NCBI GenBank assembly: GCA_012729505.1
Contig: JAAYDA010000019.1
Span: forward strand, 234 to 64,233
DNA: 64,000 nucleotides
Direction: 5' to 3'
DNA from: Syntrophomonadaceae bacterium
GTDB taxonomy: Bacteria > Bacillota > Syntrophomonadia > Syntrophomonadales > DTU052
Position 1 is the stretch's first letter, and every line of letters begins with the position of its first letter. The translations under genes and the position numbers were made by a program. The notes under the pieces were generated by a model. The model saw nothing but the letters and a program-made list of their open reading frames with translations. It was not told the DNA's origin and ran no database searches. Shown here piece after piece: positions 520 to 63,625 of the stretch.

Positions 520-702
520 TTGAAGCGGGATTTGAAAACTAATCCAAAAGTAAATATCATATATGCTAAAAAAGAGCAGCCGTCCATTGAAGCTAACGAA
601 AAGCTTCCAGAAGGAATAACAGAATCTTTTAAGGAAGTCGTATTGATGAGGCAGGGTAAAATTCCTAAAAAGACTTGGTGGGAGGTTAGGGATGAAATAT
701 GA
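520..702 (+). CDS. putative small antitoxin partner of the downstream RelE/ParE-type toxin (60 aa, TTG start)
   Basis: RBS AAAGGAGG at 503-510 lies 9 nt before an in-frame TTG at 520. The stop overlaps the toxin start by 11 nt. The C-terminus (SFKEVVLMRQGKIPKK) resembles small antitoxin tails as I recall them. Confidence 0.45.
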   Translation: MKRDLKTNPKVNIIYAKKEQPSIEANEKLPEGITESFKEVVLMRQGKIPKKTWWEVRDEI

Positions 703-994
703 GGTCATACCAACCTCGTACTTTCTAAGAAGATTGAAACAACTTAAAGAGCGCGGCGTAGAGCGAGGAGTAGATTCCCTCGCTCTCGGTTTGCAGGAAG
801 GTATTTTTCCTGGAGTTATCATAAAGGGCACCAAAGGTAAGGTTCGCAAGACTCGCATTGAAGCTGCTGGTCAAGGGAAAAGGGGTGGCTTTCGGGTGAT
901 CTATTATCTCTGCATTGAGGAAAACAAAGAAATCTACCTAATAGACGTATACGGCAAAAATGAGAAAGAAACCATAACCCCAGCTGAGATTTAA
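692..994 (+). CDS. RelE/ParE-superfamily type II toxin
   Basis: 100 aa. The GGFRVIYY...IYLIDVYGKNEKE signature is typical of RelE/ParE-like addiction-module toxins. It is translationally coupled to the upstream small ORF. Confidence 0.7.
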   Translation: MKYEVIPTSYFLRRLKQLKERGVERGVDSLALGLQEGIFPGVIIKGTKGKVRKTRIEAAGQGKRGGFRVIYYLCIEENKEIYLIDVYGKNEKETITPAEI

Positions 995-1030
995 CAGCTT
1001 CTAAAACAACAAGAATTGCCCCTATGGTGA

Positions 1031-1066
1031 GCCAAAAGCCCCTTGTTTAAACAAGAGGCTTTTGGC
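1031..1066 (+). terminator. stem-loop downstream of the RelE-like gene
   Basis: GCCAAAAGCC...GGCTTTTGGC forms a 10-bp stem around the palindromic CTTGTTTAAACAAG. It lies about 35 nt after the stop at 994. Confidence 0.5.
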
Positions 1067-1117
1067 GTTAGTAGTTGTAGGAATTATTTCTCTGTGCTTA
1101 AAGCCTAAAAAGAAAGA

Positions 1118-1245
1118 AGACTGCCTTTGTGTAAGGCGGTCTAGTCCCGATGTAGGACCTACCGCCCCGCAAAAAACGGCAACCCCTTTATTAGTTGTAT
1201 GATATCATCTAAAAAATAATACGTCAACGTACCAAAAGGCGGGCT
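1118..1245 (-). ncRNA. copy A of a promoter-bearing ~125-nt repeat (candidate small RNA), leftward orientation
   Basis: On the minus strand: TTGACG (plus 1222-1227), a 17-nt spacer, then TATCAT (plus 1199-1204). An AAGGGGTTGCCG...GGCGG hairpin follows, then a terminal hairpin AGACTGCC..GGCGGTCT at 1118-1142. It aligns along its whole length with copies at 5000-5131 and 5805-5931. Confidence 0.4.
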
Positions 1246-1367
1246 CCTAACACTCAGATCAATAGCTGGGGCTAAAATATTTCACATATGTCCTCAGTCT
1301 TGAGTCACGAATAATCCAGTCTCTCTTGCGCATACTATGTACATAGTGTACGCTAGGAGGTGGAGGG

Positions 1368-1784
1368 ATGTTTATGCAGGACATAATGAGTGCAACAGAG
1401 GTTCGAAAAGAATGGAGCACCTGGGTTGACAGAGTGGTTAGAGAGAAGCCTTTGGTGGTAAAGCGCACCCACGATTACTTTGTAGGAATATCTATTGAGC
1501 ACCTGAAAAAACTACTTGAACCCTACAAATTTGAAATAGAAATTGACGCAGAGAAAAGCGGTGCTTTTGTGGCGTCGTTAAAAGGCTTTGACTTGGTGGT
1601 ATCCGGGCAAAATAAAGATGAGGTGCGCAAAGCTATGGCGCATGAGTTGTTGGAATACGCCCAAGATTATTTTGCGGAATTTGATCTTTATTATAAGGCT
1701 CCCAACCGGCAGGAACACTTTCCGTATTTACTTAAGGTGTTGTTATTGAATGATACTCGGGAGCTTGAAAGACTAATTGCCTAG
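1368..1784 (+). CDS. antitoxin-like protein (Phd/YefM-like N-terminus, HicB/UPF0150-like middle region)
   Basis: RBS AGGAGGTGGAGGG precedes the ATG. The N-terminus SATEVRKEWSTWVDRV..KPLVVKR resembles Phd/YefM antitoxins. No cognate toxin follows because the truncated IS66 abuts the stop. Confidence 0.4.
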   Translation: MFMQDIMSATEVRKEWSTWVDRVVREKPLVVKRTHDYFVGISIEHLKKLLEPYKFEIEIDAEKSGAFVASLKGFDLVVSGQNKDEVRKAMAHELLEYAQDYFAEFDLYYKAPNRQEHFPYLLKVLLLNDTRELERLIA

Positions 1785-2062
1785 ATGCGCCGATAGGTGA
1801 TAGTCTCCGTCTGGGGTTCTTCTGTATGGGGATTGGCGCTCTCTTCAGCCTCGTTGAAAAGGTTAAGCTGTTCGGGCGAAGACTTCTCACTGGAAGAACC
1901 AAAGCGCTTCTGATTTATTAGGCGCAACTGTTCCTCATACCATTTGAGGCGGGAATTAAGCTCGGCGTTCTGCTGTTCCAATGTTAAAATATGTTGATCT
2001 TTTTGAAGCAAAACAGTTTGAAGTTGTTCAACAAGAGCAGCAGAATTTTCATGCTTATCCAT
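1781..2062 (-). pseudogene. IS66 transposase (TnpC) N-terminal fragment
   Basis: LEQQNAELNSRLKWYEEQLRLINQKRFGSSSEK..QLNLFNEAE is the leucine-zipper N-terminus of IS66 TnpC. Only 93 of roughly 500 aa are present. Confidence 0.8.
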
Positions 2063-2137
2063 GTCTTAATTATACCGTAAAATCGGGCTTTTTGCCAGTT
2101 TAATATGCTTAAATTTCCCGAAATATCGGTATTTTTA

Positions 2138-2491
2138 TCAAAGAACCGTTCGTTCTTTTACCGCTTTATGGGCTTGCTTTTGCCGAAGCGATAATCCGTC
2201 CAGAAGCCAGCGCAGTTCCCGATAACTGATGTTAACTACTCTGGTGTTTTCATCCGGCCAGTTGAACTTGCCCCGTTCAAGACGGCGGTAATGCAGCCAG
2301 AAGCCATTATGATCCCATTGCAGGATTTTGAGCTTATTGCGGCTGCGGTTGCAAAATACATAAAGGCTCTGACTGAATGGATCCAGAGCAAATGATTCTT
2401 TGACTACTACAGCTAAAGAGTCGATGGATTTTCTAAGATCAGTGCTGCCGCAGGCCAGGTAAACCTGCCGATTTGAAATGTCACTTATCAT
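2138..2491 (-). CDS. IS66 family accessory protein Orf2 (TnpB)
   Basis: 117 aa with YLACGSTDLRKSIDSLAVVV...LYVFCNRSRNKLKILQWDHNGFWLHYRRLE, the conserved IS66 Orf2 pattern. It overlaps orf1 by 4 nt. Confidence 0.85.
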   Translation of the reverse strand: MISDISNRQVYLACGSTDLRKSIDSLAVVVKESFALDPFSQSLYVFCNRSRNKLKILQWDHNGFWLHYRRLERGKFNWPDENTRVVNISYRELRWLLDGLSLRQKQAHKAVKERTVL

Positions 2492-2799
2492 AGCGTCTTC
2501 AGAACTTTAACAACCTGGCCAAGCAGTTCATGATCAAAGCCATCTTGAACTTCGACTGAGATTTGCCCGACATGGATCATTACGGTTTTAGAATCAAATC
2601 TGGTTCTGACATCAAGCGGCAACCATTTGACTGCGGCATTGTTGGTTTTCGGTTTCGGATTTAACCGTCTGCGCCAGTAATAAAACCGGCTAACGGGTAG
2701 CGAATGCTTCCGGCACCAGGCCACGATGCTCAATCCGCTGCGTTGATAGTCCAAAAACCGTTGTTCCCATTCTTTTTGAAGATTTATCATCCTGAACAC
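2488..2799 (-). CDS. IS66 family Orf1 (TnpA, helix-turn-helix protein)
   Basis: 103 aa. WEQRFLDYQRSGLSIVAWCRKHSLPVSRFYYWRRRL is the IS66 Orf1 HTH motif. Confidence 0.8.
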   Translation of the reverse strand: MFRMINLQKEWEQRFLDYQRSGLSIVAWCRKHSLPVSRFYYWRRRLNPKPKTNNAAVKWLPLDVRTRFDSKTVMIHVGQISVEVQDGFDHELLGQVVKVLKTL

Positions 2800-2873
2800 T
2801 CCTTATTTTAAGGCTCAGGATATTCTCTCAAATCTCATTTGCTTTGTGAATGTGTCCGCGTTTTGACGCTTAC

Positions 2874-3020
2874 TATAAAGTGGAATAACCCAACAGCCTT
2901 ACTGAATTCAACCAGTATATCGACATCACTATTCTCTTTAGCTTCACCCCTGGCAAACGAACCGAATACACCAATGCGGCTCACATAGTATTGCTTGAAA
3001 AAACGGTGGGTATTCTGACC
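2874..3020 (-). pseudogene. nucleotidyltransferase (MNT/minimal NTase) gene fragment disrupted by the IS66 insertion
   Basis: The minus-strand frame reads ..KQYYVSRIGVFGSFARGEAKENSDVDILVEFSKAVGLFHF and runs straight into the IS66 IR at 2873. GSxxRGE..DxD is the NTase motif. No start codon or C-terminal half is present. Confidence 0.5.
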
Positions 3021-3145
3021 TGATTAATATGTTAGAATTAATAAATCTAAGACAGTCGGTTGAGGTAAAAGGTTTTGACCGGCTTTTTAAGTGAGGTCCC
3101 ATTACTTAAGAAAATCCGGTTCGTCCCCATAGAAAGGAATAAACC

Positions 3146-3403
3146 TTGTATTTAGGAATAATTTTTGGCTTATATGTACTGTTTACCATAGGTTTGTATC
3201 ACATACTGGTAGTGAAGCTGGAAGAACGCTACGGGGTATGGCCCTGGCTGGTTTTCCTCGTTATCGGACTGCTGTGTCTGTATTTATCCTGGCGCAGTTC
3301 CAGTGAAGCCTTATCCATGTGGTGGGGATATAACGCCTTTTTAAACCTATGGACCATCAAAGAAATGTTTGAGCAACCCAAGCGGCGTCTGAGCAAGAGG
3401 TAA
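3146..3403 (+). CDS. small predicted membrane protein
   Basis: 85 aa with two hydrophobic helices (GIIFGLYVLFTIGLY; WLVFLVIGLLCLYL). TTG start. No family recognised. Confidence 0.3.
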   Translation: MYLGIIFGLYVLFTIGLYHILVVKLEERYGVWPWLVFLVIGLLCLYLSWRSSSEALSMWWGYNAFLNLWTIKEMFEQPKRRLSKR

Positions 3404-3567
3404 AAGAACTGCCCCTGGTTCATAAATTAAGAAACGGAAGCGATCAATTTCCGGCGGGAGCATGACCGATTCGGCCCTTTGAACGGAAAGTTTGTCCTGA
3501 GACACGAACAGCAAAAACATAATGATAAGCAGCGCGATATAGACCACCGCGAACGGTACAATGGACT

Positions 3568-4488
3568 TTAATCCTTCAACAGGTTCAAGTATTGGGAAAG
3601 CCTTTCCCTTACATATTCGCCCACCATATTCACCATCGGTGACGCGTCGCTGTCCCAATAATAGCTGTCAAAGCAGGCATAATATTTTCTCCTGTCCGCA
3701 AATTTCACGTCGATGGGCGGGTAGCCCGCCTGCATCAGCATTAGATTCAATATCAGCCGCCCGGTGCGTCCATTACCGTCGATGAACGGATGAATTCCCT
3801 CAAAGTTCAGGTGGAACAGCGCCGCCGTTTCTATGGTATGCCGGTTGCCGCGGTGTAAATCCGCAACCAACCCTTCCATTTGAACCGGAACAAGATAAGG
3901 CTGGGGCGGCTCGTGATGCGCACCCATAATCTTCACCGGAATTCTCCGGTACACACCCTTGTCCTCCGGCCGATCCATCAAAACAAGGGAATGGATTTCG
4001 CGGATAATCCGTTCCGAAATCGGGACCTTATCGCTGACGAGCGAAACCACATAAAGAAAAGCGTCACGGTGCCCCACCGCCTCCAGATGGTCTTTCAGCG
4101 GTTTTTTGCCAATCGTCACACCCTCCAAAGCGAGCGCGGTTTCCTGCAGCGTGAGCGTGTTGCCCTCGATGGCGTTCGAGTTGTAGGTGAATTCCACGAG
4201 GAACTCGTCCTGCAATCGTTTCAATTCCCCGCTTGTTAAGGAACGCCGACGGTCAAGTTCCGCTTTCATTCCGTCAATAGACGCGAAAAACGCGGCATAT
4301 TGTTCCGGAATATCCTTGCCTCGCAGACTACGACCGTCAATCGGTTTTAGCGCGTCTGCCGGAATGAGGTAGGAACGTCCTTTCTGAATGGCGCCCTCTA
4401 CCCGCCCCTCGGAACAAAGCAAACGAACCCGACGGTCAGATATGCCCCACCGCTCCGACGCTTGTTTTACGGTCATGTATTGCATCAC
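3568..4488 (-). CDS. Fic/DOC family protein with N-terminal MerR/excisionase-like HTH
   Basis: It carries the canonical Fic motif HPFIDGNGRTGR. The N-terminus TVKQASERWGISDRRVRLLCSEGRVEGA is HTH-like. Confidence 0.9.
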   Translation of the reverse strand: MMQYMTVKQASERWGISDRRVRLLCSEGRVEGAIQKGRSYLIPADALKPIDGRSLRGKDIPEQYAAFFASIDGMKAELDRRRSLTSGELKRLQDEFLVEFTYNSNAIEGNTLTLQETALALEGVTIGKKPLKDHLEAVGHRDAFLYVVSLVSDKVPISERIIREIHSLVLMDRPEDKGVYRRIPVKIMGAHHEPPQPYLVPVQMEGLVADLHRGNRHTIETAALFHLNFEGIHPFIDGNGRTGRLILNLMLMQAGYPPIDVKFADRRKYYACFDSYYWDSDASPMVNMVGEYVRERLSQYLNLLKD

Positions 4489-4577
4489 TTCACCTCCTAA
4501 TCTTTATATAGTATACTACGTTAACGGAATAATATCAATGACATTTCAATAATTATACCCCTATTATTCCGACAAGG

Positions 4578-4853
4578 TTTAAAACATCCGGTTCTCATGC
4601 AATTCGCCACAAATCCTTCGGCTACATAGCCAAGGAATCAGTCAGCAGGCAATCGCAGAAAGCCTTTCCTGCTCACGCAACACCGTAGCCAAGGTGTTAC
4701 ACAGAGCGAAGGAACTTTCCATCGCCTGGCCACTGACACCAGAAACCACCGACGCAGTGCTGGACTGACTATTATATCCAGACTCCGTCACCCCGACAAA
4801 TCGTTGTCTTCCTGATAACGAGTATATCCATAAGGAGATGGCGTAAAAAGGAG
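4578..4853 (+). pseudogene. IS21-family transposase (IstA) N-terminal remnant, frameshifted and truncated
   Basis: One frame reads ..QILRLHSQGISQQAIAESLSCSRNTVAKVLHRAKELSIAWPLTPETTDAVLD then a stop. The next frame continues LLYPDSVTPTNRCLPDNEYIHKEMA then a stop. This is the IstA HTH followed by the PD.EYIHKEL region. Confidence 0.55.
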
Positions 4854-4970
4854 TTAGTCTACCCACTCCAGGATCTGAATGATCTGGGCCACGCTTCTCG
4901 CTTGATTTCCACCTTTGTCAAATTGCCCATCATGTGCTTTCGCAGCGATTATAATCGCTTTATTAAGCAT
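4854..4970 (-). pseudogene. truncated HD-domain ((p)ppGpp-hydrolase-like) gene stub, 38 codons
   Basis: RBS GAAGGGGGG precedes an ATG at 4970. MLNKAIIIAAKAHDGQFDKGG.. matches HD-domain N-termini. The frame ends exactly where the IS21 remnant begins. Confidence 0.35.
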
Positions 4971-4999
4971 TAGAAAAATCCCCCCTTCACATCACTAGG

Positions 5000-5131
5000 A
5001 ACGCCCTTTGCCTCGGTGACGTATTCTTTTTCTGATGAATATCATACAATTTATAAAGGAGTTGCCGCTTTTTACGAGGCGGTAGATCCTAAATCGTGTT
5101 AGACCGCCTTACACAATGAAGGCGGTCTTCT
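5000..5131 (+). ncRNA. copy B of the promoter-bearing ~125-nt repeat (candidate small RNA)
   Basis: GTGACG (5016-5021), an 18-nt spacer, then TATCAT (5040-5045). AAAGGAGTTGCCGC..GGCGG follows, then a terminal hairpin AGACCGCC..GGCGGTCT at 5101-5128. Confidence 0.4.
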
Positions 5132-5249
5132 TACCCCTCCTTCACAGGAATTATAACATGGTTCTACCACAAAAGAGCCCGGCATTAAACCGGGCTTTTC
5201 TGTAAATATATGATACGTTTTTCAAGGTGCTCCTTTAACATTGCGCCGT

Positions 5250-5480
5250 TTAATTATTGGAGGATTGGGTTATTGTCGTCTTAGTTAAAGGCAAAGAAAT
5301 CGCTTCCAGTACCGATAAGTCACTGGCCTTGCTTGCGTTGTCAATATCTATTCCCACTATCCTGCCTTCGGTATCATAGTCAAGCACTACGCCAGGAGCG
5401 ACTTCTTCCGAATCGGCACTGGGTCGTTCAGATAGCTCGATATAAAGGGAATCTGTTTCAGGATAATAACTTAGTTTCAT
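5250..5480 (-). CDS. DUF2283-family small protein
   Basis: 76 aa. MKLSYYPETDSLYIELSERP...GVVLDYDTEGRIVGIDI is the characteristic DUF2283 pattern. Confidence 0.7.
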   Translation of the reverse strand: MKLSYYPETDSLYIELSERPSADSEEVAPGVVLDYDTEGRIVGIDIDNASKASDLSVLEAISLPLTKTTITQSSNN

Positions 5481-5482
5481 TA

Positions 5483-5719
5483 CTACTCCTCCTTCCTAAA
5501 TCCTCTATCAGGGAAGGCATTATGTATAGTTTCGCCGTCTTCCAAGGTTACTACACGAAGGTATTTTTGAATCTCGCTGACGAAAATCCAATGACGAATG
5601 CGTCCATCATCTTGAGTTTCTTTTCGTTCTGGTTGATTGATGGCCTGTAAACACCATTCGCGTTTAATATATGAGCGTTTACGAAGAACTTGTTCCTCAA
5701 ATTATCTGGTCGTCTTCAT
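5483..5719 (-). pseudogene. DUF4258-like gene with an in-frame TAA at codon 6
   Basis: RBS GGAGG precedes the ATG at 5719. The frame reads MKTTR, stop (plus 5702-5704), then FEEQVLRKRSYIKREWCLQAINQPERKE..DGRIRHWIF..VVTLEDGETIHNAF. It ends 2 nt before the DUF2283 start. Confidence 0.5.
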
Positions 5720-5804
5720 ATCAATCCTCCGTTTCCGTACAAATATTATAACATCTGGAAGGTCTTGGTCAAGGAGACATCGCCCTTCGTTGGCCCCAAA
5801 CCTC

Positions 5805-5931
5805 CCACGCTTTTGCCTCGTTGACGTATTATTTTTTAGGTGATATCATACAATTAATAAAGGAGTTGCCGCTTGTGGTATGGCGGCAGGTCCTAATCGG
5901 TTTTAGACCGCCTTACACAAAGGCGGTCTCG
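5805..5931 (+). ncRNA. copy C of the promoter-bearing ~125-nt repeat (candidate antisense/small RNA convergent with a toxin ORF)
   Basis: TTGACG (5821-5826), a 17-nt spacer, then TATCAT (5844-5849). AAAGGAGTTGCCGCTTGTGGTATGGCGGCAGG forms a hairpin, and a terminal hairpin sits at 5905-5929. The element ends 2 nt from the stop of the convergent 28-codon ORF. Confidence 0.45.
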
Positions 5932-6018
5932 TTATTTCTTGTGCATAATACACAAAGAAATGACTCCTAAAATTACTAAGCAGAATTGAAACAATTCGCT
6001 AAATGTAATCATAGGCAT
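5932..6018 (-). CDS. 28-aa hydrophobic peptide, holin-like (type I) toxin candidate
   Basis: MPMITFSELFQFCLVILGVISLCIMHKK has one TM helix and a basic C-terminus, like the 'putative holin-like toxin' peptides of Firmicutes as I recall them. The ORF is absent from the track because it is under 60 aa. Confidence 0.45.
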   Translation of the reverse strand: MPMITFSELFQFCLVILGVISLCIMHKK

Positions 6019-8215: not shown

Positions 8216-8267
8216 GTTAGCTAGATGAGCAGACCCGCCTATAGGCGGGTCTGCTCATCTAGCTAAC
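8216..8267. terminator. long perfect palindrome; terminator after the carboxyltransferase gene
   Basis: GTTAGCTAGATGAGCAGACCCGCC TATA GGCGGGTCTGCTCATCTAGCTAAC forms a 24-bp stem. Confidence 0.7.
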
Positions 8268-40792: not shown

Positions 40793-40839
40793 TCATATAA
40801 CATAACCTTAAACAGCGCGGTAAACCCGCGCTTTTCTGC

Positions 40840-40932
40840 TTTTCATTCCCCCTTTCCCCCTTTCTCCTTTCCCCTCACCCCTTACCCCTTACCCCTTTCC
40901 CCTCACCCCTTTCGCCTCACTCCTCACTCCTT
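40840..40932. repeat. C-rich low-complexity tract (CCCTCAC/CCCTTAC/CCTTTC units), member of the mosaic repeat family
   Basis: ..CCCCTTTCCCCCTTTCTCCTTTCCCCTCACCCCTTACCCCTTACCCCTTTCCCCTCACCCCTTTCGCCTCACTCCTCACTCC.. Confidence 0.8.
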
Positions 40933-40937
40933 ACTTT

Positions 40938-41609: not shown

Positions 41610-41815
41610 ATTCCCTCCATTACCCTCACCCCTCACCCCTCACCCCTCACTCCTCTCGCCTCACCCCTCCCGCAGTAACACGTAGTTAGTTCCACTTGCT
41701 CCCGGAAAGAGATTAAGGAATTAAGGAAGTTCGACGCTCCACGTCGAACCAAGCGAGGAGCACAAATCTCTTAACAAGATTTGGCTCCCGCCTGCCTCAC
41801 CCCTCCGCCTCACTT
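41610..41815 (+). repeat. mosaic structured repeat: C-rich tract + inverted M2 fragment + M1 double hairpin + C-rich tract
   Basis: M1 is GGAATTAAGGAAGTTCGACGCTCCACGTCGAACCAAGCGAGGAGCACAAATCTCTTAACAAGATTTGGCTCCCGCCTG (41717-41794). Related copies lie at 47294, 55848(-), 58503(-) and 63525. Confidence 0.85.
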
Positions 41816-41827
41816 TTCCATGTGCTC

Positions 41828-41930
41828 CTCCTGTGCCTGTTATGTACACTAAAAAAAATTAATAAAAAATTAACATGTGATTCTCTTGTATCTATCCTTG
41901 CAATTCCCCTATGTGATAGTAGGTTATGGT
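41828..41930 (+). promoter_or_regulatory. conserved ~105-nt upstream element (copy 1) with three ATGTRMW direct repeats spaced 33 and 36 nt
   Basis: It aligns with 49201-49305. The repeats are ATGTACA at 41842, ATGTGAT at 41875 and ATGTGAT at 41911. TTGCAA lies between the last two. Confidence 0.4.
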
Positions 41931-42228: not shown

Positions 42229-42885
42229 ATGATGAAGAAGGAAGGAACCGAAAACATTAATACCCCCGCCAAGCTCCTGAAAATTGCGGCTACCGGTGTG
42301 ATGATAATAGCCTTTACCGCTGGTTCTTTACACCTGGCCACTACCCAATCTTATTTTACCGACAAAGAAACAGGCTTCGCCTCATTTACTCTGGAGGTAA
42401 AACACTCTCAGCATAATTTAGCCGAGCAACTGGACCTTGGGACTAGCAGCACTCCCGGTGAAGAACCAAGCGCTCCCAGCGGAGGCTCAGTCAACCCCGG
42501 CAATGACGGCGACACCGGCGGAGGCGACAATGACGGCAACCCCGACACTGGCGACAACGACGGCGACACCGGCGGAGGTGACAATGACAGCAATACCGGC
42601 GGAGGCGACAACGACGGCAACACCGGCGGAGGCGACAACGACGGCAACACCGGCGGAGGCGACAACGACGGCAACACCGGCGGAGGCGACAGCGGTAGCA
42701 CCGGCGACAGCGGTAGCACCGGCGACAGCGGTAGCACCGGCGACAGCGGTAGCACCGGCGACAGCGGTAGCACCGGCGACAGCGGTAGCACCGGCGATAG
42801 CGGTGGCGGCAGCGACAGCGGTGGCGGCAGCGACGGCGGTGGCGGTAGCGACGGCGGCGGCGGCAGCGACGGCGGCGGCGAATAA
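42229..42885 (+). CDS. secreted protein with SipW-type signal peptide followed almost entirely by Gly/Asp/Asn/Ser/Thr repeats
   Basis: A TM segment is followed by ATTQSYFTDKE, like the SipW-cognate signal motif. A short strand GFASFTLEV comes next. The rest is (GDNDGNTGG)n, (DSGSTG)6 and (GGGSD)n. Confidence 0.6.
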   Translation: MMKKEGTENINTPAKLLKIAATGVMIIAFTAGSLHLATTQSYFTDKETGFASFTLEVKHSQHNLAEQLDLGTSSTPGEEPSAPSGGSVNPGNDGDTGGGDNDGNPDTGDNDGDTGGGDNDSNTGGGDNDGNTGGGDNDGNTGGGDNDGNTGGGDSGSTGDSGSTGDSGSTGDSGSTGDSGSTGDSGSTGDSGGGSDSGGGSDGGGGSDGGGGSDGGGE

Positions 42886-42901
42886 GGAGGCATCCCTGTA
42901 A

Positions 42902-43532: not shown

Positions 43533-44189
43533 ATGAAAAGGAAGATACTGTTTGGATTTCTGTTAATTAGCCTTCAGAGTTTTATGGTAGGAGGCGGCAC
43601 CATGGCTTACTTTACATCCGATGCCACTCTCGCTTCCACTGCTTTTAATTTCAGTACAGTGGACATAAAAATCGTAGAACCCGCTGCTCCCCAGTGTGGC
43701 GGCGGTGGCGGCCAGCAGAGCGCCGCATGGGAAATCACAAATGTCGGAGATCAGGATGTTCAGCTTCGGGTGAAGGTAACAGGGAGATTTGAAAATAATG
43801 AACTCAATACGATGGATACGGAAGAGATAGTTAATCTTACTGGTGAAGCCGACCTCATGAAAGGACCAGGAGGACCAGGAGGACCAGGAGGACCAGGAGG
43901 ACCAGGAGGACCAGGAGGTCCAGGAGGTCCAGGAGGTCCGGGAGGGCCAGGAGGGCCAGGTGGTTCATCCGAGCCTCCCACAGTTGATCTGGTGCCTTGT
44001 AATGGCTGGTATTTAGAAAACGGGTACTATTATTACGATGGTATATTACCCATGGGTGACTCGGTTCCCTTTAGTCTCACATTGAATAAAAGCGGAGGCA
44101 GCACAGGCACCTACAACTATAATCTTGATATCGAAGCCCAAGCCTTGCAGACCGTTAATGAGCCCCAGTGGACAGACGTCAGCTTTTAA
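43533..44189 (+). CDS. TasA/camelysin-like secreted protein with internal (GPG)n linker
   Basis: It has a SipW-type signal ([12 protein letters not shown]). It contains the run GPGGPGGPG... (ten GPG units). The C-terminal [12 protein letters not shown] is like the TasA-family end motif. Confidence 0.65.
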
Positions 44190-44309: not shown

Positions 44310-44396
44310 ACAGATAAAGGCAAACCTGCCGAAAGACAGGGACGCAAAGCTATAGGGCCTTTCTGAAAGCAGAATGGCAGCCTGGCCGCCGATAAT
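44310..44396 (+). promoter_or_regulatory. c-di-GMP-I (GEMM-I) riboswitch
   Basis: AAAGGCAAACCTGCCGAAAGACAGGGACGCAAAGCTATAGGGCC....GGCAGCCTGGCCGCCGATAA matches the GGCAAA..GAAAG..GGACGCAAAGCC..GGGTTRCCGA core. It ends about 30 nt before the 44427 start. Confidence 0.8.
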
Positions 44397-46575: not shown

Positions 46576-46591
46576 ACTGACACTCAGTAAA

Positions 46592-46627
46592 GAATAGCCG
46601 GTGACCCCGGCTATTCTTTTATTTTGC
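46592..46627 (+). terminator. intrinsic terminator after the LPXTG-type gene
   Basis: AGAATAGCCGG tgacc CCGGCTATTCT followed by TTTATTTTG. Confidence 0.7.
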
Positions 46628-46644
46628 TTAAAGAGGGATGACAG

Positions 46645-47235: not shown

Positions 47236-47455
47236 GCATTAGTGAGGCGTAAGGAGTAAGGCGTAAGGCGTTAGGTGTTAGGAGAGATGGGGTAATTAAG
47301 GAAGTTCGACGCTCCACGTCGAACCAAGCGAGGAGCACAAATCTCTTAACAAGATTTGGCTCCCGCCTGAACGCTCCACGTCGAACCAAGCGAGGAGCAC
47401 AAATCTCTTAGCAAGATTTGGCTCCCGCCTGCCTTACCCCTCTCTCCTCACCCCT
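47236..47455 (+). repeat. mosaic structured repeat: G-rich tract + M1 with internal partial duplication + C-rich tract
   Basis: GTGAGGCGTAAGGAGTAAGGCGTAAGGCGTTAGG.. is followed by M1 at 47294-47368. A second copy lacking the first ~16 nt lies at 47369-47433, followed by CCTTACCCCTCTCTCCTCACCCCTCA. The two arms are inverse-complementary in composition. Confidence 0.85.
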
Positions 47456-47457
47456 CA

Positions 47458-49107: not shown

Positions 49108-49200
49108 AATAATCTGCGTTCATCTGCGTTTTCGTTTCCCCGTTCCCCGTCCCTCGTCTTCCCGTATCTCCTCCCGCCTCACTCCTTTCTCATCGCAACA
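49108..49200. repeat. mosaic repeat fragment (ATCTGCGT units + C-rich tract)
   Basis: AATCTGCGTTCATCTGCGTTTTCGTTTCCCCGTTCCCCGTCCCTCGTC..CCTCCCGCCTCACTCCTTTCTC shares modules with 50571-50690 and 63230-63290. Confidence 0.75.
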
Positions 49201-49305
49201 CTCCCGTGTGCCTGTCATGTACACTAAAAGAGATTCATAAAAAATGTCCGTGTAATTCTCTTATATCTCCCCATGCAATTCCCTTATGTAATAGTAGGTT
49301 ATAGT
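49201..49305 (+). promoter_or_regulatory. conserved ~105-nt upstream element (copy 2)
   Basis: It aligns with 41828-41930. ATGTACA at 49217, GTGTAAT at 49250 and ATGTAAT at 49286 have the same 33/36-nt spacing. Confidence 0.4.
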
Positions 49306-50570: not shown

Positions 50571-50690
50571 TCCCCCCATTCTCCTCCTTCTCACCCCTCA
50601 CGGTCCCCATCTGCGTAAATCTGCGTTAATCTGCGTCTTCGTTCACCCTTTCGCCTTTCGCCTTTCGCCTCACTCCTAACTCCCTCTTGC
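50571..50690. repeat. mosaic repeat fragment (C-rich tract + ATCTGCGT units + TTCGCC units)
   Basis: ..CTCACCCCTCACGGTCCCCATCTGCGTAAATCTGCGTTAATCTGCGTCTTCGTTCACCCTTTCGCCTTTCGCCTTTCGCCTCACTCC.. is the reverse complement of modules at 63230-63290. Confidence 0.8.
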
Positions 50691-50730
50691 ATAATTATTT
50701 TTTTCTGCTAAAATTAGATATAAGTAAAGT

Positions 50731-50812
50731 TGATAAAGGCAAATTCGTCGAAAGGCGGAGACGCAAAGCCACGGGCCTAAGACCGGAAGGTTATGGTCGC
50801 CGGGTTGCCGAT
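50731..50812 (+). promoter_or_regulatory. c-di-GMP-I (GEMM-I) riboswitch, first of a tandem pair
   Basis: AAAGGCAAATTCGTCGAAAGGCGGAGACGCAAAGCCACGGGCCTAAGACC..GGTCGCCGGGTTGCCGATAA aligns closely with the Vc2 aptamer sequence as I recall it. Confidence 0.9.
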
Positions 50813-50869: not shown

Positions 50870-50904
50870 ATCCGACTCTTTGCGTAAAAAGCGAATAGCA
50901 AAAC

Positions 50905-50986
50905 CGATAATGGCAAATCCGTCGAAAGGCGGAGACGCAAAGCCACGGGCCTAAGACCGAAAGGTTATGGTCGCCGGGTTGCCGAA
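50905..50986 (+). promoter_or_regulatory. c-di-GMP-I (GEMM-I) riboswitch, second of the tandem pair
   Basis: AATGGCAAATCCGTCGAAAGGCGGAGACGCAAAGCCACGGGCCTAAGACC..GGTCGCCGGGTTGCCGAAG is nearly identical to the first aptamer. Confidence 0.9.
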
Positions 50987-55829: not shown

Positions 55830-55950
55830 AAAAAGTGAGAAGTGAGGGCAGCGGGAGCCAAATCTCTCTAAGGAGATTTGTGCTCCCCGCTTGGTTCGAC
55901 GTGGAGCGTCGAACTTCCTTATATTAATGTTACCGAAAACGGGGGGAAGG
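55830..55950 (-). repeat. mosaic structured repeat (M1 in reverse orientation plus flanking modules)
   Basis: Plus 55848-55920 is the reverse complement of M1 (..GGGAGCCAAATCTCTCTAAGGAGATTTGTGCTCC..GGTTCGACGTGGAGCGTCGAACTTCCTTA). CCGAAAACGGGGGGAAGGG follows it. Confidence 0.85.
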
Positions 55951-56002
55951 GAATGATGAAGTAAAAACACAGGACGACTATTTGATTTTATAAAAGGTCG
56001 TA

Positions 56003-57109
56003 CTACTTCCAAATACCAACAGGAGCTTTATTCAATAAGGATTTCCAAATCCGAGTTTTGGACGGCGGTGCACCGATTTTTACAATGTCGATAAAACCTT
56101 CATGGGCAGATGCATTCCCGGAACTGGTAACAGGTCCTGAAAACAAATCTGCTTTTTCTAATTCAATAATTGAATCATCGTCATTAGAAATTTTATCACC
56201 ATAGCCGAAAGACAAAATATTGACTTCGTCCAATTGCTCGGATAGGTATTGCGAAAGAATTAACCCTGTTGACTTCGATATATAGTCTGCCAATACATCT
56301 TGAACCAGCCATATAGTTTTGCCGCCCCAAGCCATTCCAGCTTGTGATTTTACAATAAGTTGGCTTACCATTCTCGCCCAAACTTGACGATAGTTTATGC
56401 CCGGAGCATTATGTTCTGCGCCCTTCAGTATTGCGTCCTCGCAAGCCATAGCAATTTGACTGCGGTTTTTCTTGTTTCCACCCGAAGTGCTTGATGTCAT
56501 AACCTCGATAATTATCAGCGGGTCAGACGGAAAATCGTCAATCCATATTTCGGAATCGCGGAAAGCAAGGGTATACCCATTTTTTGTCGCTGTGCGTTTT
56601 ACAACAGCTAATGGTAACCCCACAAGTTCCGCAACATCGCTCAATCTCTTGCGTTGCACACCTGCAAGCACATAGTCAAAAGTATAATCAAACCACTTCG
56701 CTTCGTCCTCGCTATTAGTCAATTCAGTCTTTATTTTTACTTCCGACCATGCGAAATATTTTTCTCCCTTTTCTAATTCGGAAAAACCGGATAATTGATT
56801 GCGCACATGGGATTGATAATTGGAGAGTTCGCCGTTCTTAAGCGACAGCAAACGGCGTGGGCAAATAATCCACGGCTGCTCACCATAGTGCGTTTGCAAA
56901 GAGCACACACCAATTTGAACAGTATCTTTATTGGGAATTCGTGCGCTCAATTCAGGATTTTTCTTTAGATCAATGGCAGACTGAAAGCGATTACCGCCGC
57001 CATCACATTCAGCGTTCATGAATGGACACCATGCCATACTTAGATTCTGCTCTGCTTCTTTATTCCATCGGTCAAGTCTGTATCCATACAATTCAAATAT
57101 TTTGCTCAC
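56003..57109 (-). CDS. type II restriction endonuclease, NotI-like family
   Basis: The N-terminal WCPFMNAEC..(40 aa)..GVCSL....PWIICPRR mirrors the NotI Cys4 metal motif (CPF..C...GVC...W.CP.R). LIIIEVMTSSTSGG resembles the NotI VLEIQTMDFHG catalytic region. It overlaps the methylase gene by 17 nt. Confidence 0.55.
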   Translation of the reverse strand: MSKIFELYGYRLDRWNKEAEQNLSMAWCPFMNAECDGGGNRFQSAIDLKKNPELSARIPNKDTVQIGVCSLQTHYGEQPWIICPRRLLSLKNGELSNYQSHVRNQLSGFSELEKGEKYFAWSEVKIKTELTNSEDEAKWFDYTFDYVLAGVQRKRLSDVAELVGLPLAVVKRTATKNGYTLAFRDSEIWIDDFPSDPLIIIEVMTSSTSGGNKKNRSQIAMACEDAILKGAEHNAPGINYRQVWARMVSQLIVKSQAGMAWGGKTIWLVQDVLADYISKSTGLILSQYLSEQLDEVNILSFGYGDKISNDDDSIIELEKADLFSGPVTSSGNASAHEGFIDIVKIGAPPSKTRIWKSLLNKAPVGIWK

Positions 57110-58208
57110 TTAAATACCTCCGGATTTCGTTTCCCATAGCATACGCTAATGGTGGCGGAACAGAGTTGGCAACCTGACGATGCTGGTCGAGATTTTTTAC
57201 TGTTCCAGTTCGCGAGCGAATAGGGCCGCATAACATGTAGTCGTCTCCATAACCATGTATTCGCATATACTCTCGTGGCGTTAGATATCTATCTTCTGTG
57301 GGATGATAAAATATCTCTCCACATCTCAACGTATTTGAAGGCTTTTTTCTATCAAGCCTTAAATACTTAGTTGTATCTTTCTTTTGTAGGTTACATCGCA
57401 AATCCACGCTTAAATGCTTTTGTGCAGCCAAATAGGAGCCTTCTGGCACTTGCGCAATACGCTCCCTGTCTCTGGGAGGCGTAACATCAACATGACCGTC
57501 AGCACGGTTATAAATTGTCGTGCCAGGTATTTTGGCATCGGGTTGTCCGAGTCCATTTATTACATCACCAACTGTGAAGTAAGGTGGTAATCCAAATAAA
57601 TTTGGTGTCTCCTCTGGCGGAACATGTGTTCTTGCAGGAAATTCAAAACCATTTTTACCTCGTGTGGCAACAACAAAGACCCTTTCCCTCATTTGAGGAA
57701 CACCGTAATCGGCAGCACAGCAAACTTGCCACTTGGGGATATAATCAATGCTTTCAAGCGCCGCAATAAATTGTTCAAATACGCCGCCTTTCTTCCCATC
57801 CTCGTCTTTTGCGGATAGTATTCCTTTTACTTGTTCAAGCAGAATAACTTTCGGTTTAAAATACTCCGCAAATCTAACTATTTCAAATAACAATGGGCCT
57901 CTTGTATCATTAAGCCCATTTTGCTTTCCAGCTAACGAAAATGGTTGACATGGCGGCCCGCCAAAAAGCAAATCTAAAGGCAATGGTTCAACACCTAAAT
58001 CTGCGCCTAATTGAGCAGGATCTACTTTTCTAATATCTGTTTCAAACACCACAGTATTAGTGCGTTCCCGCTTAATCGCAGCACGAAGTGTTTCACAACA
58101 ATATTTATCTATTTCAAGTTCTGCAAGAATATTGAATCCAGCCTGTCTAATCCCAATATCCATCCCGCCGGCACCAGAAAACAAGCTGATTGCATTTAGG
58201 TTATTCAT
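57093..58208 (-). CDS. DNA (cytosine-5)-methyltransferase
   Basis: It has motif I LFSGAGG, motif IV GGPPCQPFS, motif VI LLEQVKG, motif VIII QMRERVFVV and motif X NSVPPPLA. The start was set at MNNLNAIS behind RBS GGAGG. Confidence 0.9.
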   Translation of the reverse strand: MNNLNAISLFSGAGGMDIGIRQAGFNILAELEIDKYCCETLRAAIKRERTNTVVFETDIRKVDPAQLGADLGVEPLPLDLLFGGPPCQPFSLAGKQNGLNDTRGPLLFEIVRFAEYFKPKVILLEQVKGILSAKDEDGKKGGVFEQFIAALESIDYIPKWQVCCAADYGVPQMRERVFVVATRGKNGFEFPARTHVPPEETPNLFGLPPYFTVGDVINGLGQPDAKIPGTTIYNRADGHVDVTPPRDRERIAQVPEGSYLAAQKHLSVDLRCNLQKKDTTKYLRLDRKKPSNTLRCGEIFYHPTEDRYLTPREYMRIHGYGDDYMLCGPIRSRTGTVKNLDQHRQVANSVPPPLAYAMGNEIRRYLSEQNI

Positions 58209-58384
58209 CGGTATTACCTCCATAGGGTTTTACGGCAATATTGATGCCATTAAATTCTGAGTCACTTGTTACTGTGACAATATCCTTTATTGATAAATTT
58301 GACATAAAACAATCTTTTCCTTTTGGATTTTTCCGCAAAGAGCACAAAAAAGCCTTCGCCCTTAAGCCCTTTGGGATTCTCAAT

Positions 58385-58575
58385 TTTGCCGTAACATTTC
58401 GCTGCCGAAAACGGGGGAAAGAGGACGCAGATATAAAAAGTGAGGCGGGAGGCGGGAGGCGGGAGGAGAAAGGCGAACAGCACGGAGTTAGTTCCGACGC
58501 AGGCAGGCGGGAGCCAAATCTTTTTAAGAGATTTGTGCTCCTCGCTTGCCTCACACCTCACTTCTTAACACACTC
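58385..58575 (-). repeat. mosaic structured repeat (partial M1 lacking hairpin 1, plus G-rich GGGAGGC units)
   Basis: CCGAAAACGGGGGAAAGAGGACGCAGAT..GTGAGGCGGGAGGCGGGAGGCGGGAGG..GTTAGTTCCGACGCAGGCAGGCGGGAGCCAAATCTTTTTAAGAGATTTGTGCTCCTCGCTTGCCTCACACCTCAC. Confidence 0.8.
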
Positions 58576-63114: not shown

Positions 63115-63625
63115 ATAGGCGAGAGGCGTGAGGCGGGAGGAGTGGAGCACGGAGGCCGAAACCGAGCAGATGAATTTGCCGGTTCTCATTCCGGGAGCAA
63201 GTGGAATTAACCACGTGTTACTGCGAAAGGCGGGAGGTGTGAGGCGTGAGGCGAAAGGCGAACGAAGACGCAGATGGGGACCGTCAGGGGAGGGGCGTGG
63301 TTAGTTCCGACGCAGAGACCGTTGGGATGAGGGCCGAGCAAACTCCTGCGAAGGTGAGGTCGGAGAGCAGCCGAAGGACAGGAGGTCCTGAGTCCGCCTC
63401 CTGAGCCATGGAGGGCGAATTGGCGGTGTGCTGCTCGGAGACCGAAACCGAGCAGATGAATTTGCCGGTTCTCATTCCGGGAGCAAGTGGAATTAACCAC
63501 GTGTTACTGCTGAAGTAAACTTGTAAGGAATTAAGGAAGTTCAGCGCTCCACGCTGAACCAAGCGAGGAGCACGAATCTCTTTAGGAGATTCGGCTCCCG
63601 CCTGCCTCACGCCTCACCCTCTCCA
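63115..63625 (+). repeat. ~510-nt block made only of mosaic repeat modules (G-rich tracts, two direct M2 copies, M1)
   Basis: M2 (CCGAAACCGAGCAGATGAATTTGCCGGTTCTCATTCCGGGAGCAAGTGGAATTAACCACGTGTTACTGC) occurs at about 63147-63215 and about 63442-63510. M1 lies at 63525-63604 with compensatory stem changes. Confidence 0.85.

Follow-up and report, generated by a model that had tools for sequence, protein, structure and literature searches.

Repeat copies in the window

The window, by which we mean the whole 64,000-nucleotide stretch of DNA that was analysed, belongs to an uncultured Syntrophomonadaceae bacterium. Its proteins are annotated at NCBI as "MAG: Syntrophomonadaceae bacterium", and its DNA was also found in anaerobic-digester metagenomes. 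The spacers of its right-hand part contain M1, an intergenic repeat of 75-79 nt that comprises two hairpins, H1 and H2:

41722-41800 (+): full M1 copy, covariance model score 108.5 bits
41729-41749 (+): H1 of the 41722 copy, 8-bp stem, loop CTCCA
41753-41791 (+): H2 of the 41722 copy, 3+5+7 bp, bulged A at 41756 and 41762, linker CCAA before H2
47297-47372 (+): full M1 copy, first unit of a tandem pair
47373-47437 (+): 62-nt partial tandem duplicate of M1 (3' half of H1 plus H2)
55842-55921 (-): full M1 copy, between the 368-aa ORF of a presumed restriction-modification (R-M) pair and an ABC ATPase gene
58498-58567 (-): partial M1 copy, H2 without H1, 11 nt past the pstB stop
63532-63610 (+): full M1 copy, compensated variant (H1 GA>AG / TC>CT; H2 A-T>G-C)

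A first-pass annotation had placed the repeat at five sites, with a partial internal duplication near 47294 and a partial copy near 58503. Pattern matches and the covariance model locate M1 at all five; the duplication is the 62-nt unit listed above, giving a tandem of 1.8 units at 47297-47437, and only H2 is present at the pstB site. The core 20-mer CAAGCGAGGAGCACAAATCT has six matches in the window at up to three mismatches against 0.01 expected, and the 21-mer of H1 has three against 0 expected. No further copies were found between 1 and 40 kb by a covariance-model search with the filters off. The 55842 copy carries the variant GCGGGGAGC and has a longer H2 loop, while the 63532 copy contains the final codons and stop (63582-63584) of the convergent MGMT gene. 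The neighbouring genes named at first pass were MNT (NTP_transf_2), sortase, pstB and crotonase, all of which stand, and a "restriction enzyme", which is only plausible: the 368-aa ORF adjoins a C5 methylase but has no Pfam match.

The window holds several other features. Two paralogous clusters, marked by the repeats D8, D13 and D18 and a 99-nt promoter-region repeat (41832-41930 / 49207-49305), contain camelysin-like (Peptidase_M73/InlB B-repeat) and transglutaminase-like genes preceded by c-di-GMP-I riboswitch aptamers. There are three of these aptamers, at 44310-44394 and, as a tandem pair, at 50728-50812 and 50902-50986. The secreted-protein cluster, whose last gene is a class D sortase, includes long in-frame repeats of 9 and 27 nt (42471-42899, 43844-43978) that encode tracts either rich in G/D/N/S or collagen-like (GPG). 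Inverted repeats of approximately 170 nt (1068-1238 / 5810-5979), 4.6 kb apart, enclose toxin-antitoxin genes (RelE-like, PHD-like) and a Fic/HTH gene together with IS66 remnants (TnpB_IS66 and a truncated transposase leucine zipper; ORFs 692-4488), and the region 1068-5979 may be a decayed mobile island. A perfect 52-nt palindrome at 8216-8267, with 26-nt arms and no spacer, lies between two minus-strand genes.

Covariation of the two hairpins

H1 has the form GTTCGACG-CTCCA-CGTCGAAC and H2 the form GCG-A-GGAGC-A-CAAATCT / AGATTTG-GCTCC-CGC, with two bulged A residues on the 5' arm. The first-pass annotation had described both hairpins as maintained by compensatory substitutions, and the 63532 copy bears this out: its H1, at 63539, reads GTTCAGCG-CTCCA-CGCTGAAC, a change of two neighbouring pairs that affects both arms, and its H2 carries CGAATCTC/GAGATTCG. 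When compared with their own shuffles, the window copies gave fold z-scores of -5.3 to -5.9, with none of 200 shuffles as stable. An alignment of 17 copies, 16 of them distinct, has 96.1% of its stem cells paired; sliding the partners by 1-3 columns lowers this to 27-50%. Double-sided changes affect four pairs (8 cells), and the resulting covariation score was reached by none of 500 shuffles.

The compensatory changes correspond to approximately four independent events across the M1 copies. They take in the two adjacent H1 pairs, whose changes are common to the 63532 copy and its ortholog in the nearest relative (locus L061), the conversion of A43-T62 to G-C, and that of G37-C67 to A-T, the latter with a G-U intermediate in L009:6578. 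The variant 5' arms GCGGGAAGC and GCGGGAGCC (no bulges) keep a full stem via a register shift or bulge loss. G-U pairs occur three times, on the given strand only (H1 of L009:6785, H2 of L009:6578 and H2 of L010:513), and the mirror A-C case was not seen among the aligned M1 copies, with register shift allowed for. The H1 loop and the CCAA linker are invariant; the H2 loop is hypervariable, with at least nine versions that include indels.

In this small sample, the M1 hairpins are constrained as single-stranded nucleic acid. The selection on an RNA or ssDNA structure that was proposed at first pass keeps the support of 96% pairing, the compensatory changes, the given-strand G-U pairs and the H2-loop variation, but loses the argument drawn from a sense location 3' of genes (see below). 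Selection is not the only source of compensatory changes in DNA palindromes, as templated (quasipalindrome) mutation can produce them too. A palindromic operator for a dimeric regulator was rejected, as both half-sites change together and a hairpin fits better.

M1 beyond the window

As the first-pass annotation had suggested, a covariance model (R1) was built from M1 and run over all fetched loci. It revealed more copies in the same organism and in the nearest relative:

L002:4685: same organism, just past the right end of the window
L009:6578 and L009:6785: same organism
L010:513 and L010:657: same organism
L016:10545: same organism
L026:3110, L026:5435 and tandem array L026:13109-13262: same organism
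L069:10062: same organism
L060/L061: nearest available relative, crotonase 93% identical

The sample comprises approximately 18 copies, with no complete genome among the sources; the 17 copies used for the stem statistics derive from the window, five further contigs of this organism and the nearest relative. A pattern scan of genome contigs returned a single chance match, in a high-GC Solirubrobacterales MAG, and did not return the window's own species. The scan of metagenome contigs gave 22 loci. Seven derive from this organism and contribute four additional spacers; 15 lie in genomes or contigs of 51-73% GC and match by chance. Both scan patterns demanded GGAGCAC and hence missed the variant GCGGGAAGCAC (L061, L069 and L026:13109). 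The patterns were unable to match the GCGGGAAGC variant, and both the copy number and the taxonomic spread of M1 are therefore under-estimated.

None of the 30 loci obtained from a pattern scan of viral contigs was confirmed by the covariance model, and a plasmid BLAST with the M2-M1 composite (M2 being a neighbouring repeat described below) as query gave no match. Searching M1-encoded peptides against a protein database, in which spurious or extended ORFs were sought, gave one useful match, P0245, which led to L069; an exhaustive representative search yielded only leucine-rich-repeat-like chance matches. Spurious ORF calls over M1 include P0245 and a 114-aa ORF at L002 10741-11085. Rfam 15 contains no M1 match at gathering score and nothing meaningful up to E = 5. 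At the fetched loci of relatives with crotonase identity of 81% or less, or pstB identity of 76%, both M1 and the heptamer arrays that accompany it are absent.

M1 as a tile in an intergenic repeat mosaic

M1 is one tile of a rapidly changing intergenic mosaic, observed in a single uncultured Syntrophomonadaceae lineage of anaerobic digesters, that also includes heptamer arrays, an M3-M2 unit and ATCTGCGT repeats:

41623-41669 (+): heptamer array (CCCTCAC)n beside M1
47241-47284, 47432-47457, 55833-55846, 58442-58475 and 63604-63621: similar heptamer arrays beside M1
40849-40935, 49136-49191, 50620-50703, 63117-63144 and 63223-63262: other heptamer arrays
63300-63515 (+): M3-M2 composite repeat, directly 5' of M1, a long imperfect hairpin of about 200 nt
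63136-63229: further copy of M2
41638-41712: inverted M2 fragment

Heptamer arrays fill most spacers between 40.8 and 64 kb; heptamers and M1 are confined to this part of the window, with none in 1-40 kb, and heptamer arrays also occur in the 93% relative. Their units include CCTCACC, CCTTTCG, CCTCCCG and CCTTACC, such that "CCT" recurs every 7 nt. In several arrays, a terminal CTCACTTTT is immediately followed by a promoter-like TTGACA (40938; L026 near 13050). The arrays recall the heptamer repeats of cyanobacteria and Beggiatoa (PMC4679880), but differ in sequence.

The 5' edge of M1 always abuts TAAGGAA heptamers and its 3' edge always pyrimidine-rich GCCTNNC heptamers, with ends that are sharp and identical in unrelated flanks (5' TAAGGAAG, 3' GCCTGCC). 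Three spacers have the order M3-M2-M1: the one in the window, the one at L002:4685-5000 and, with an intron interrupting it, one in L026. Copies that share a spacer are arranged head-to-tail (47297/47373, L026:13109-13262, L009:6578/6785 and L010:513/657), the only inverted pair being L026:3110/5435, and the tandem junction, CCTG followed by AACGCTCC, is identical at the 47373 duplicate and in the L026:13109-13262 array.

The nearest relative provides one orthologous comparison. In its crotonase/MGMT spacer, M1 is present as the compensated variant seen at 63532, but it is inverted and lies at the opposite end. The two copies agree at 62 of 64 non-loop positions. By comparison, identity at crotonase third codon positions is 75.5%, and the spacer is otherwise rearranged and mostly unalignable. 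This indicates either constraint on M1 or recent exchange. The inverted heptamer arrays at the spacer ends would offer a simple route to inversion of M1.

The company of the heptamers raises an alternative in which M1 is a functionless by-product of recombination, slippage or gene conversion among heptamer arrays, its hairpins being kept by templated quasipalindrome correction. The outer stem of H2 (GCGAGGAGC/GCTCCCGC) indeed resembles an inverted pair of heptamer units, M1 always lies within heptamer arrays, partial and tandem forms are common, and the spacers are quickly remodelled between relatives. Such an origin is at odds with the sharp ends of M1 in unrelated flanks, with the near-identity of the non-loop positions across a species split at which crotonase third positions have fallen to approximately 75%, and with the contrast between an invariant H1 loop and linker and a hypervariable H2 loop. 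We therefore regard it as unlikely.

Genomic context and orientation

The context tally covers 13 independent M1 spacers. Three are co-directional with M1 in sense, two are co-directional with M1 antisense to both neighbours, four are convergent, three are divergent, and one, that of the L026:13109 array, is unassigned:

41722: co-directional, M1 sense, between MNT and the surface-protein cluster
55842: co-directional, M1 sense, between the R-M pair and the ABC ATPase
58498: co-directional, M1 sense, between pstB and the methylase
L069: co-directional, M1 antisense to both, between mazG and hup
L009 (two copies): co-directional, M1 antisense to both, between an EF-G-like gene and OLE RNA (RF01071, 479 bits)
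47297, 63532, L016 and L061: convergent
L002:4685: divergent, 84 nt ahead of a crotonase start
L026:3110 and L026:5435: divergent, 58 and 92 nt ahead of starts, pointing outward
L010: divergent, 107 nt ahead of a small ORF, opposite a T-box-led operon

M1 is thus found mostly at gene ends, with nine of the 13 spacers convergent or co-directional. It had been stated at first pass that M1 always lies at the 3' end of a gene in sense orientation. This is true in the window only, where each copy has a same-strand gene 5' of it, at 114, 61, 81, 11 and 418 nt. Even there, the 47297 and 63532 copies occupy convergent spacers and are nearer to the stop of the opposite-strand gene, with about 400 nt of other repeats between crotonase and the 63532 copy. 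Outside the window, the antisense copies of L069 and L009, the divergent spacers and the inverted ortholog all depart from the rule, which is a sampling effect of the window. Orientation bias and covariation were two of the properties on which the first-pass annotation had staked its proposal: the former fails, whereas the latter holds, from only about four events.

A different regularity emerges when the nearer gene boundary is considered. The 3' side of M1, running into C-rich GCCTNNC heptamers, faces this boundary, and the complementary reading of M1 follows a gene stop in six spacers, at 0-106 nt. For five of these the gap is 0-57 nt and contains only purine-rich heptamers between the stop and M1; for L009 the gap to the antisense M1 is 106 nt, with the gene's own terminator in between. 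Coding sequence can extend into the element: the last 12 or so codons and the stop of the window's MGMT gene are supplied by heptamers and the H2 arm and loop of M1 (63582-63620), and at L016:10545-10624 a penicillin-binding-protein ORF reads through the whole of M1 to a TAA at its 5' edge.

Several of the neighbours deserve separate mention. The presumed R-M pair (56003-58223; a C5 DNA methylase and the 368-aa ORF) is bracketed by direct M1 copies (55842-58567) and sits between pstB and an ABC transporter operon; no relative was found that is close enough to reveal the empty site. The OLE (ornate large extremophilic) RNA at L009:5741-6326 (-) is followed by a gene for an OapA-like small membrane protein, a 187-aa ORF at L009:5166-5729 (-), and the two antisense M1 copies lie 250-540 nt upstream of the RNA. 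A T-box leader occupies L010:30-219 (-), in the divergent spacer and on the strand opposite to the two M1 copies.

The orientation data bear directly on whether M1 is a dedicated sense-strand 3'-UTR RNA element, a stabiliser or terminator selected at particular gene ends. All five window copies have a same-strand gene 5' of them, G-U pairs occur on the given strand only, and the C-rich, G-poor tract after H2 could resemble a Rho loading region behind a protective hairpin. Such a role is contradicted by M1 lying antisense between mazG and hup in L069 and antisense to both the EF-G-like gene and OLE RNA in L009, by the three divergent spacers in which M1 is located 32-107 nt upstream of start codons, and by the inversion of the orthologous copy in the nearest relative. 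Relatives at 76-81% identity also lack M1 at the ends of orthologous genes (the region downstream of pstB says little here, the closest database pstB being 76% identical and synteny lost), and no U tract follows the sense hairpins. The 3:2 ratio of sense to antisense in co-directional spacers hints at no bias. We consider a dedicated element of this type improbable.

Recombination sites and transposons

The possibility that M1 is a recombination site bounding gene cassettes, either integron attC-like or Xer/dif-like, derives from direct copies that bracket the R-M pair (55842 and 58498), the sortase-linked surface-protein cluster (41722 and 47297) and the MGMT gene (63532 and L002:4685). As in attC, one arm of H2 bears two extrahelical bases, and GTCGAAC approximates RYYYAAC. 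The window and the fetched flanks yielded no integrase or recombinase gene, and the R''/R'-like boxes GTTCGAC and GTCGAAC are 5 nt apart in the wrong order, and pair as the 8-bp H1 rather than closing the site. Furthermore, the bracketed segments are multi-gene and of mixed strand, M1 occurs in both orientations, and copies lie beside core genes (mazG/hup, the penicillin-binding protein, OLE). A cassette-bounding role is accordingly very doubtful. An integron attC site specifically was rejected on the basis of the box order, the missing integrase and the mixed orientations.

A MITE, the alternative named at first pass, here taken to be mobilised in trans by a DDE transposase, would fit a small, interspersed, intergenic and structured repeat in a window with IS66 remnants, but is highly improbable given ends (TAAGGAAG and GCCTGCC) that are not complementary and form no terminal inverted repeat, no duplicated bases in the flanks of any of the 11 M1 copies inspected, and a GC content of 53%, which is not AT-rich.

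The complementary strand and a group II intron

On the sense strand, no T run adjoins either stem in the window copies, and a canonical intrinsic terminator on this strand was rejected; the hairpins are instead followed by a C-rich, G-poor heptamer tract. The complementary strand presents H2', UUGG, H1' and UUCCUUAAUUCCUUA in this order, and as judged from sequence may have a weak Rho-independent-terminator shape. Antisense H1' is followed by TTCCTTAAT, with five T in the first nine bases, although, unlike in intrinsic terminators, the U tract is interrupted (UUCCUUAAU). The antisense H1 at 55893-55915 was the top terminator-like site of a scan and is the sole M1 copy above threshold. Within the window, no canonical hairpin-plus-T-run terminator lies next to a stem in the M1 spacers, while several M1-free gene ends have one; ordinary terminators of the genome, such as those at 46589-46629 and 40814-40842, carry uninterrupted T runs and show no sequence relationship to M1.

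A group II intron at L026:3190-5092 (contig Ga0209510_1001068) starts 8 nt after an antisense H1 and in the same orientation. It is confirmed by Rfam RF02001, RF01998 and RF00029, and encodes an RT/maturase without an endonuclease domain (En-less). The sequence reads ...CGTCGAAC TTCCTTAT up to the intron junction and GTGCGCCC beyond it, and the insertion splits an M1-M2-M3 composite that is intact at 63300-63610 of the window. Introns of group IIC are described as sitting 3' of terminator motifs or of other inverted repeats (PMC1702495), and the use of antisense H1 and its T-rich tail by an En-less intron in the same orientation resembles this homing at terminators.

Comparison with known repeat families

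REP/BIME elements comprise GTAG- and CGTC-tagged families (PMC3733652) and are RAYT-associated (PMC2817692). Like M1, they are short, hairpin-forming extragenic repeats found mostly between convergent or unidirectional genes, in which stem variants stay complementary and G-T pairs occur. Both are also species-specific, combine with other motifs into mosaics, and have neither terminal inverted repeats nor target-site duplications. The geometry of CGTC-type REPs (stem of 8-9 bp, loop of 4-5 nt, tail CCA) is matched by H1 in every full copy (8 bp, CTCCA, CCA(A)), a resemblance only, as the tag is missing. REP/BIME units carry a terminal GTAG or CGTC tag, whereas CGTC occurs in M1 only inside the H1 3' arm, by the loop, and the hairpins are flanked by GGAAG (5') and CCAA (3') for H1, and by CCAA and CTGCC for H2. 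The REP unit is also a single palindrome of 20-40 nt, commonly in inverted (HH/TT) dimers, in contrast to the fixed pair of different hairpins in M1 and the head-to-tail arrangement of neighbouring copies. The RAYT (IS200-like Y1 transposase) gene is flanked by repeats, of which there are more than 100 copies per genome; gene calls and scans of the window and fetched loci revealed no Y1 transposase. CGTC/GTAG REPs were not reported in Firmicutes in the survey PMC3733652.

The pneumococcal SPRITE, for which enrichment at convergent gene ends (3') is described, consists of an 18-bp duplex followed by a tract of approximately 48% U (PMC3049150). Judging by predicted structure, from which the likeness is drawn, SPRITE would be the nearest described functional analogue of M1, and a close one: both are Firmicute interspersed repeats with a duplex and then a moderately U-rich tract (about 48% U in SPRITE, 53% in the antisense M1 tail), and both are distinct from ordinary terminators. 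M1 shares no sequence similarity with SPRITE and differs in having two hairpins, in carrying the U-rich tail on the complementary strand only, and in also occurring upstream of genes. The streptococcal BOX elements, boxA-boxB(n)-boxC (PMC3049150), are likewise modular, with anything from 0 to n tandem repeats of the internal module, have strong predicted RNA structure, cluster with other repeats and show orientation-dependent effects. The ends of BOX are mutually pairing inverted repeats, whereas M1 has no such ends and no sequence similarity to BOX.

Discussion

M1 belongs to none of REP, BOX or SPRITE by sequence or defining motif, and is a new family of a known kind. The first-pass annotation had offered a 3'-UTR stabiliser or terminator, a REP-like element and a recombination site as options, and the second of these fits best in terms of location, complementary stems, G-T pairs, mosaic organisation and the lack of terminal inverted repeats and target-site duplications. 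We favour, with a probability of roughly 55%, a discrete REP/BIME-, BOX- or SPRITE-like repeat module that probably acts as a transcript-end marker or protector, and propose that it has spread via a hairpin intermediate or by heptamer recombination. M1 has been copied as a sharp-ended unit into at least 13 spacers in both orientations, and forms partial copies and head-to-tail sub-unit duplications. Where transcribed, the two stable hairpins would provide a transcript-end structure, serving as a 3'-exonuclease barrier and/or an aid to termination. M1 could be used from either side, the complementary strand being the more terminator-like.

Spread could involve a single-stranded hairpin intermediate and an IS200/RAYT-like enzyme or, alternatively, template switching or recombination within heptamer arrays. 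No transposase of any type was found beside M1, the window and fetched loci containing only IS66 remnants and a group II intron. The three divergent spacers of the 13 are a counterpoint to the transcript-end role, as they offer no obvious client for it.

A bolder form of this transcript-end module is conceivable, although we hold it to be a long shot: M1 together with its obligatory flanks (TAAGGAA 5', C-rich GCCTNNC 3') might constitute a mobile, polar transcription-boundary module, copied as an ssDNA hairpin by an enzyme so far unlinked to such Firmicutes repeats. M1 opens no long-standing question, and its impact is small unless it proves to be a polar terminator or to have a new mobilising enzyme. 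Were the polar module real, it would act as a terminator or insulator in one direction while being permissive to transcription in the opposite one, and the intergenic mosaic of this lineage would be a toolkit for rewiring operon boundaries.

Repeats that form small hairpins shape the ends of transcripts, cause breaks in metagenome assemblies and give landing sites to mobile elements. Here, M1 hosts a group II intron and supplies the last codons or stops of the MGMT and penicillin-binding-protein genes. Annotating it prevents spurious ORF calls and explains contig breaks, and M1 is a possible strain marker. REP-type repeats are poorly documented in Clostridia, and a defined family in a syntrophic digester bacterium thus aids annotation.
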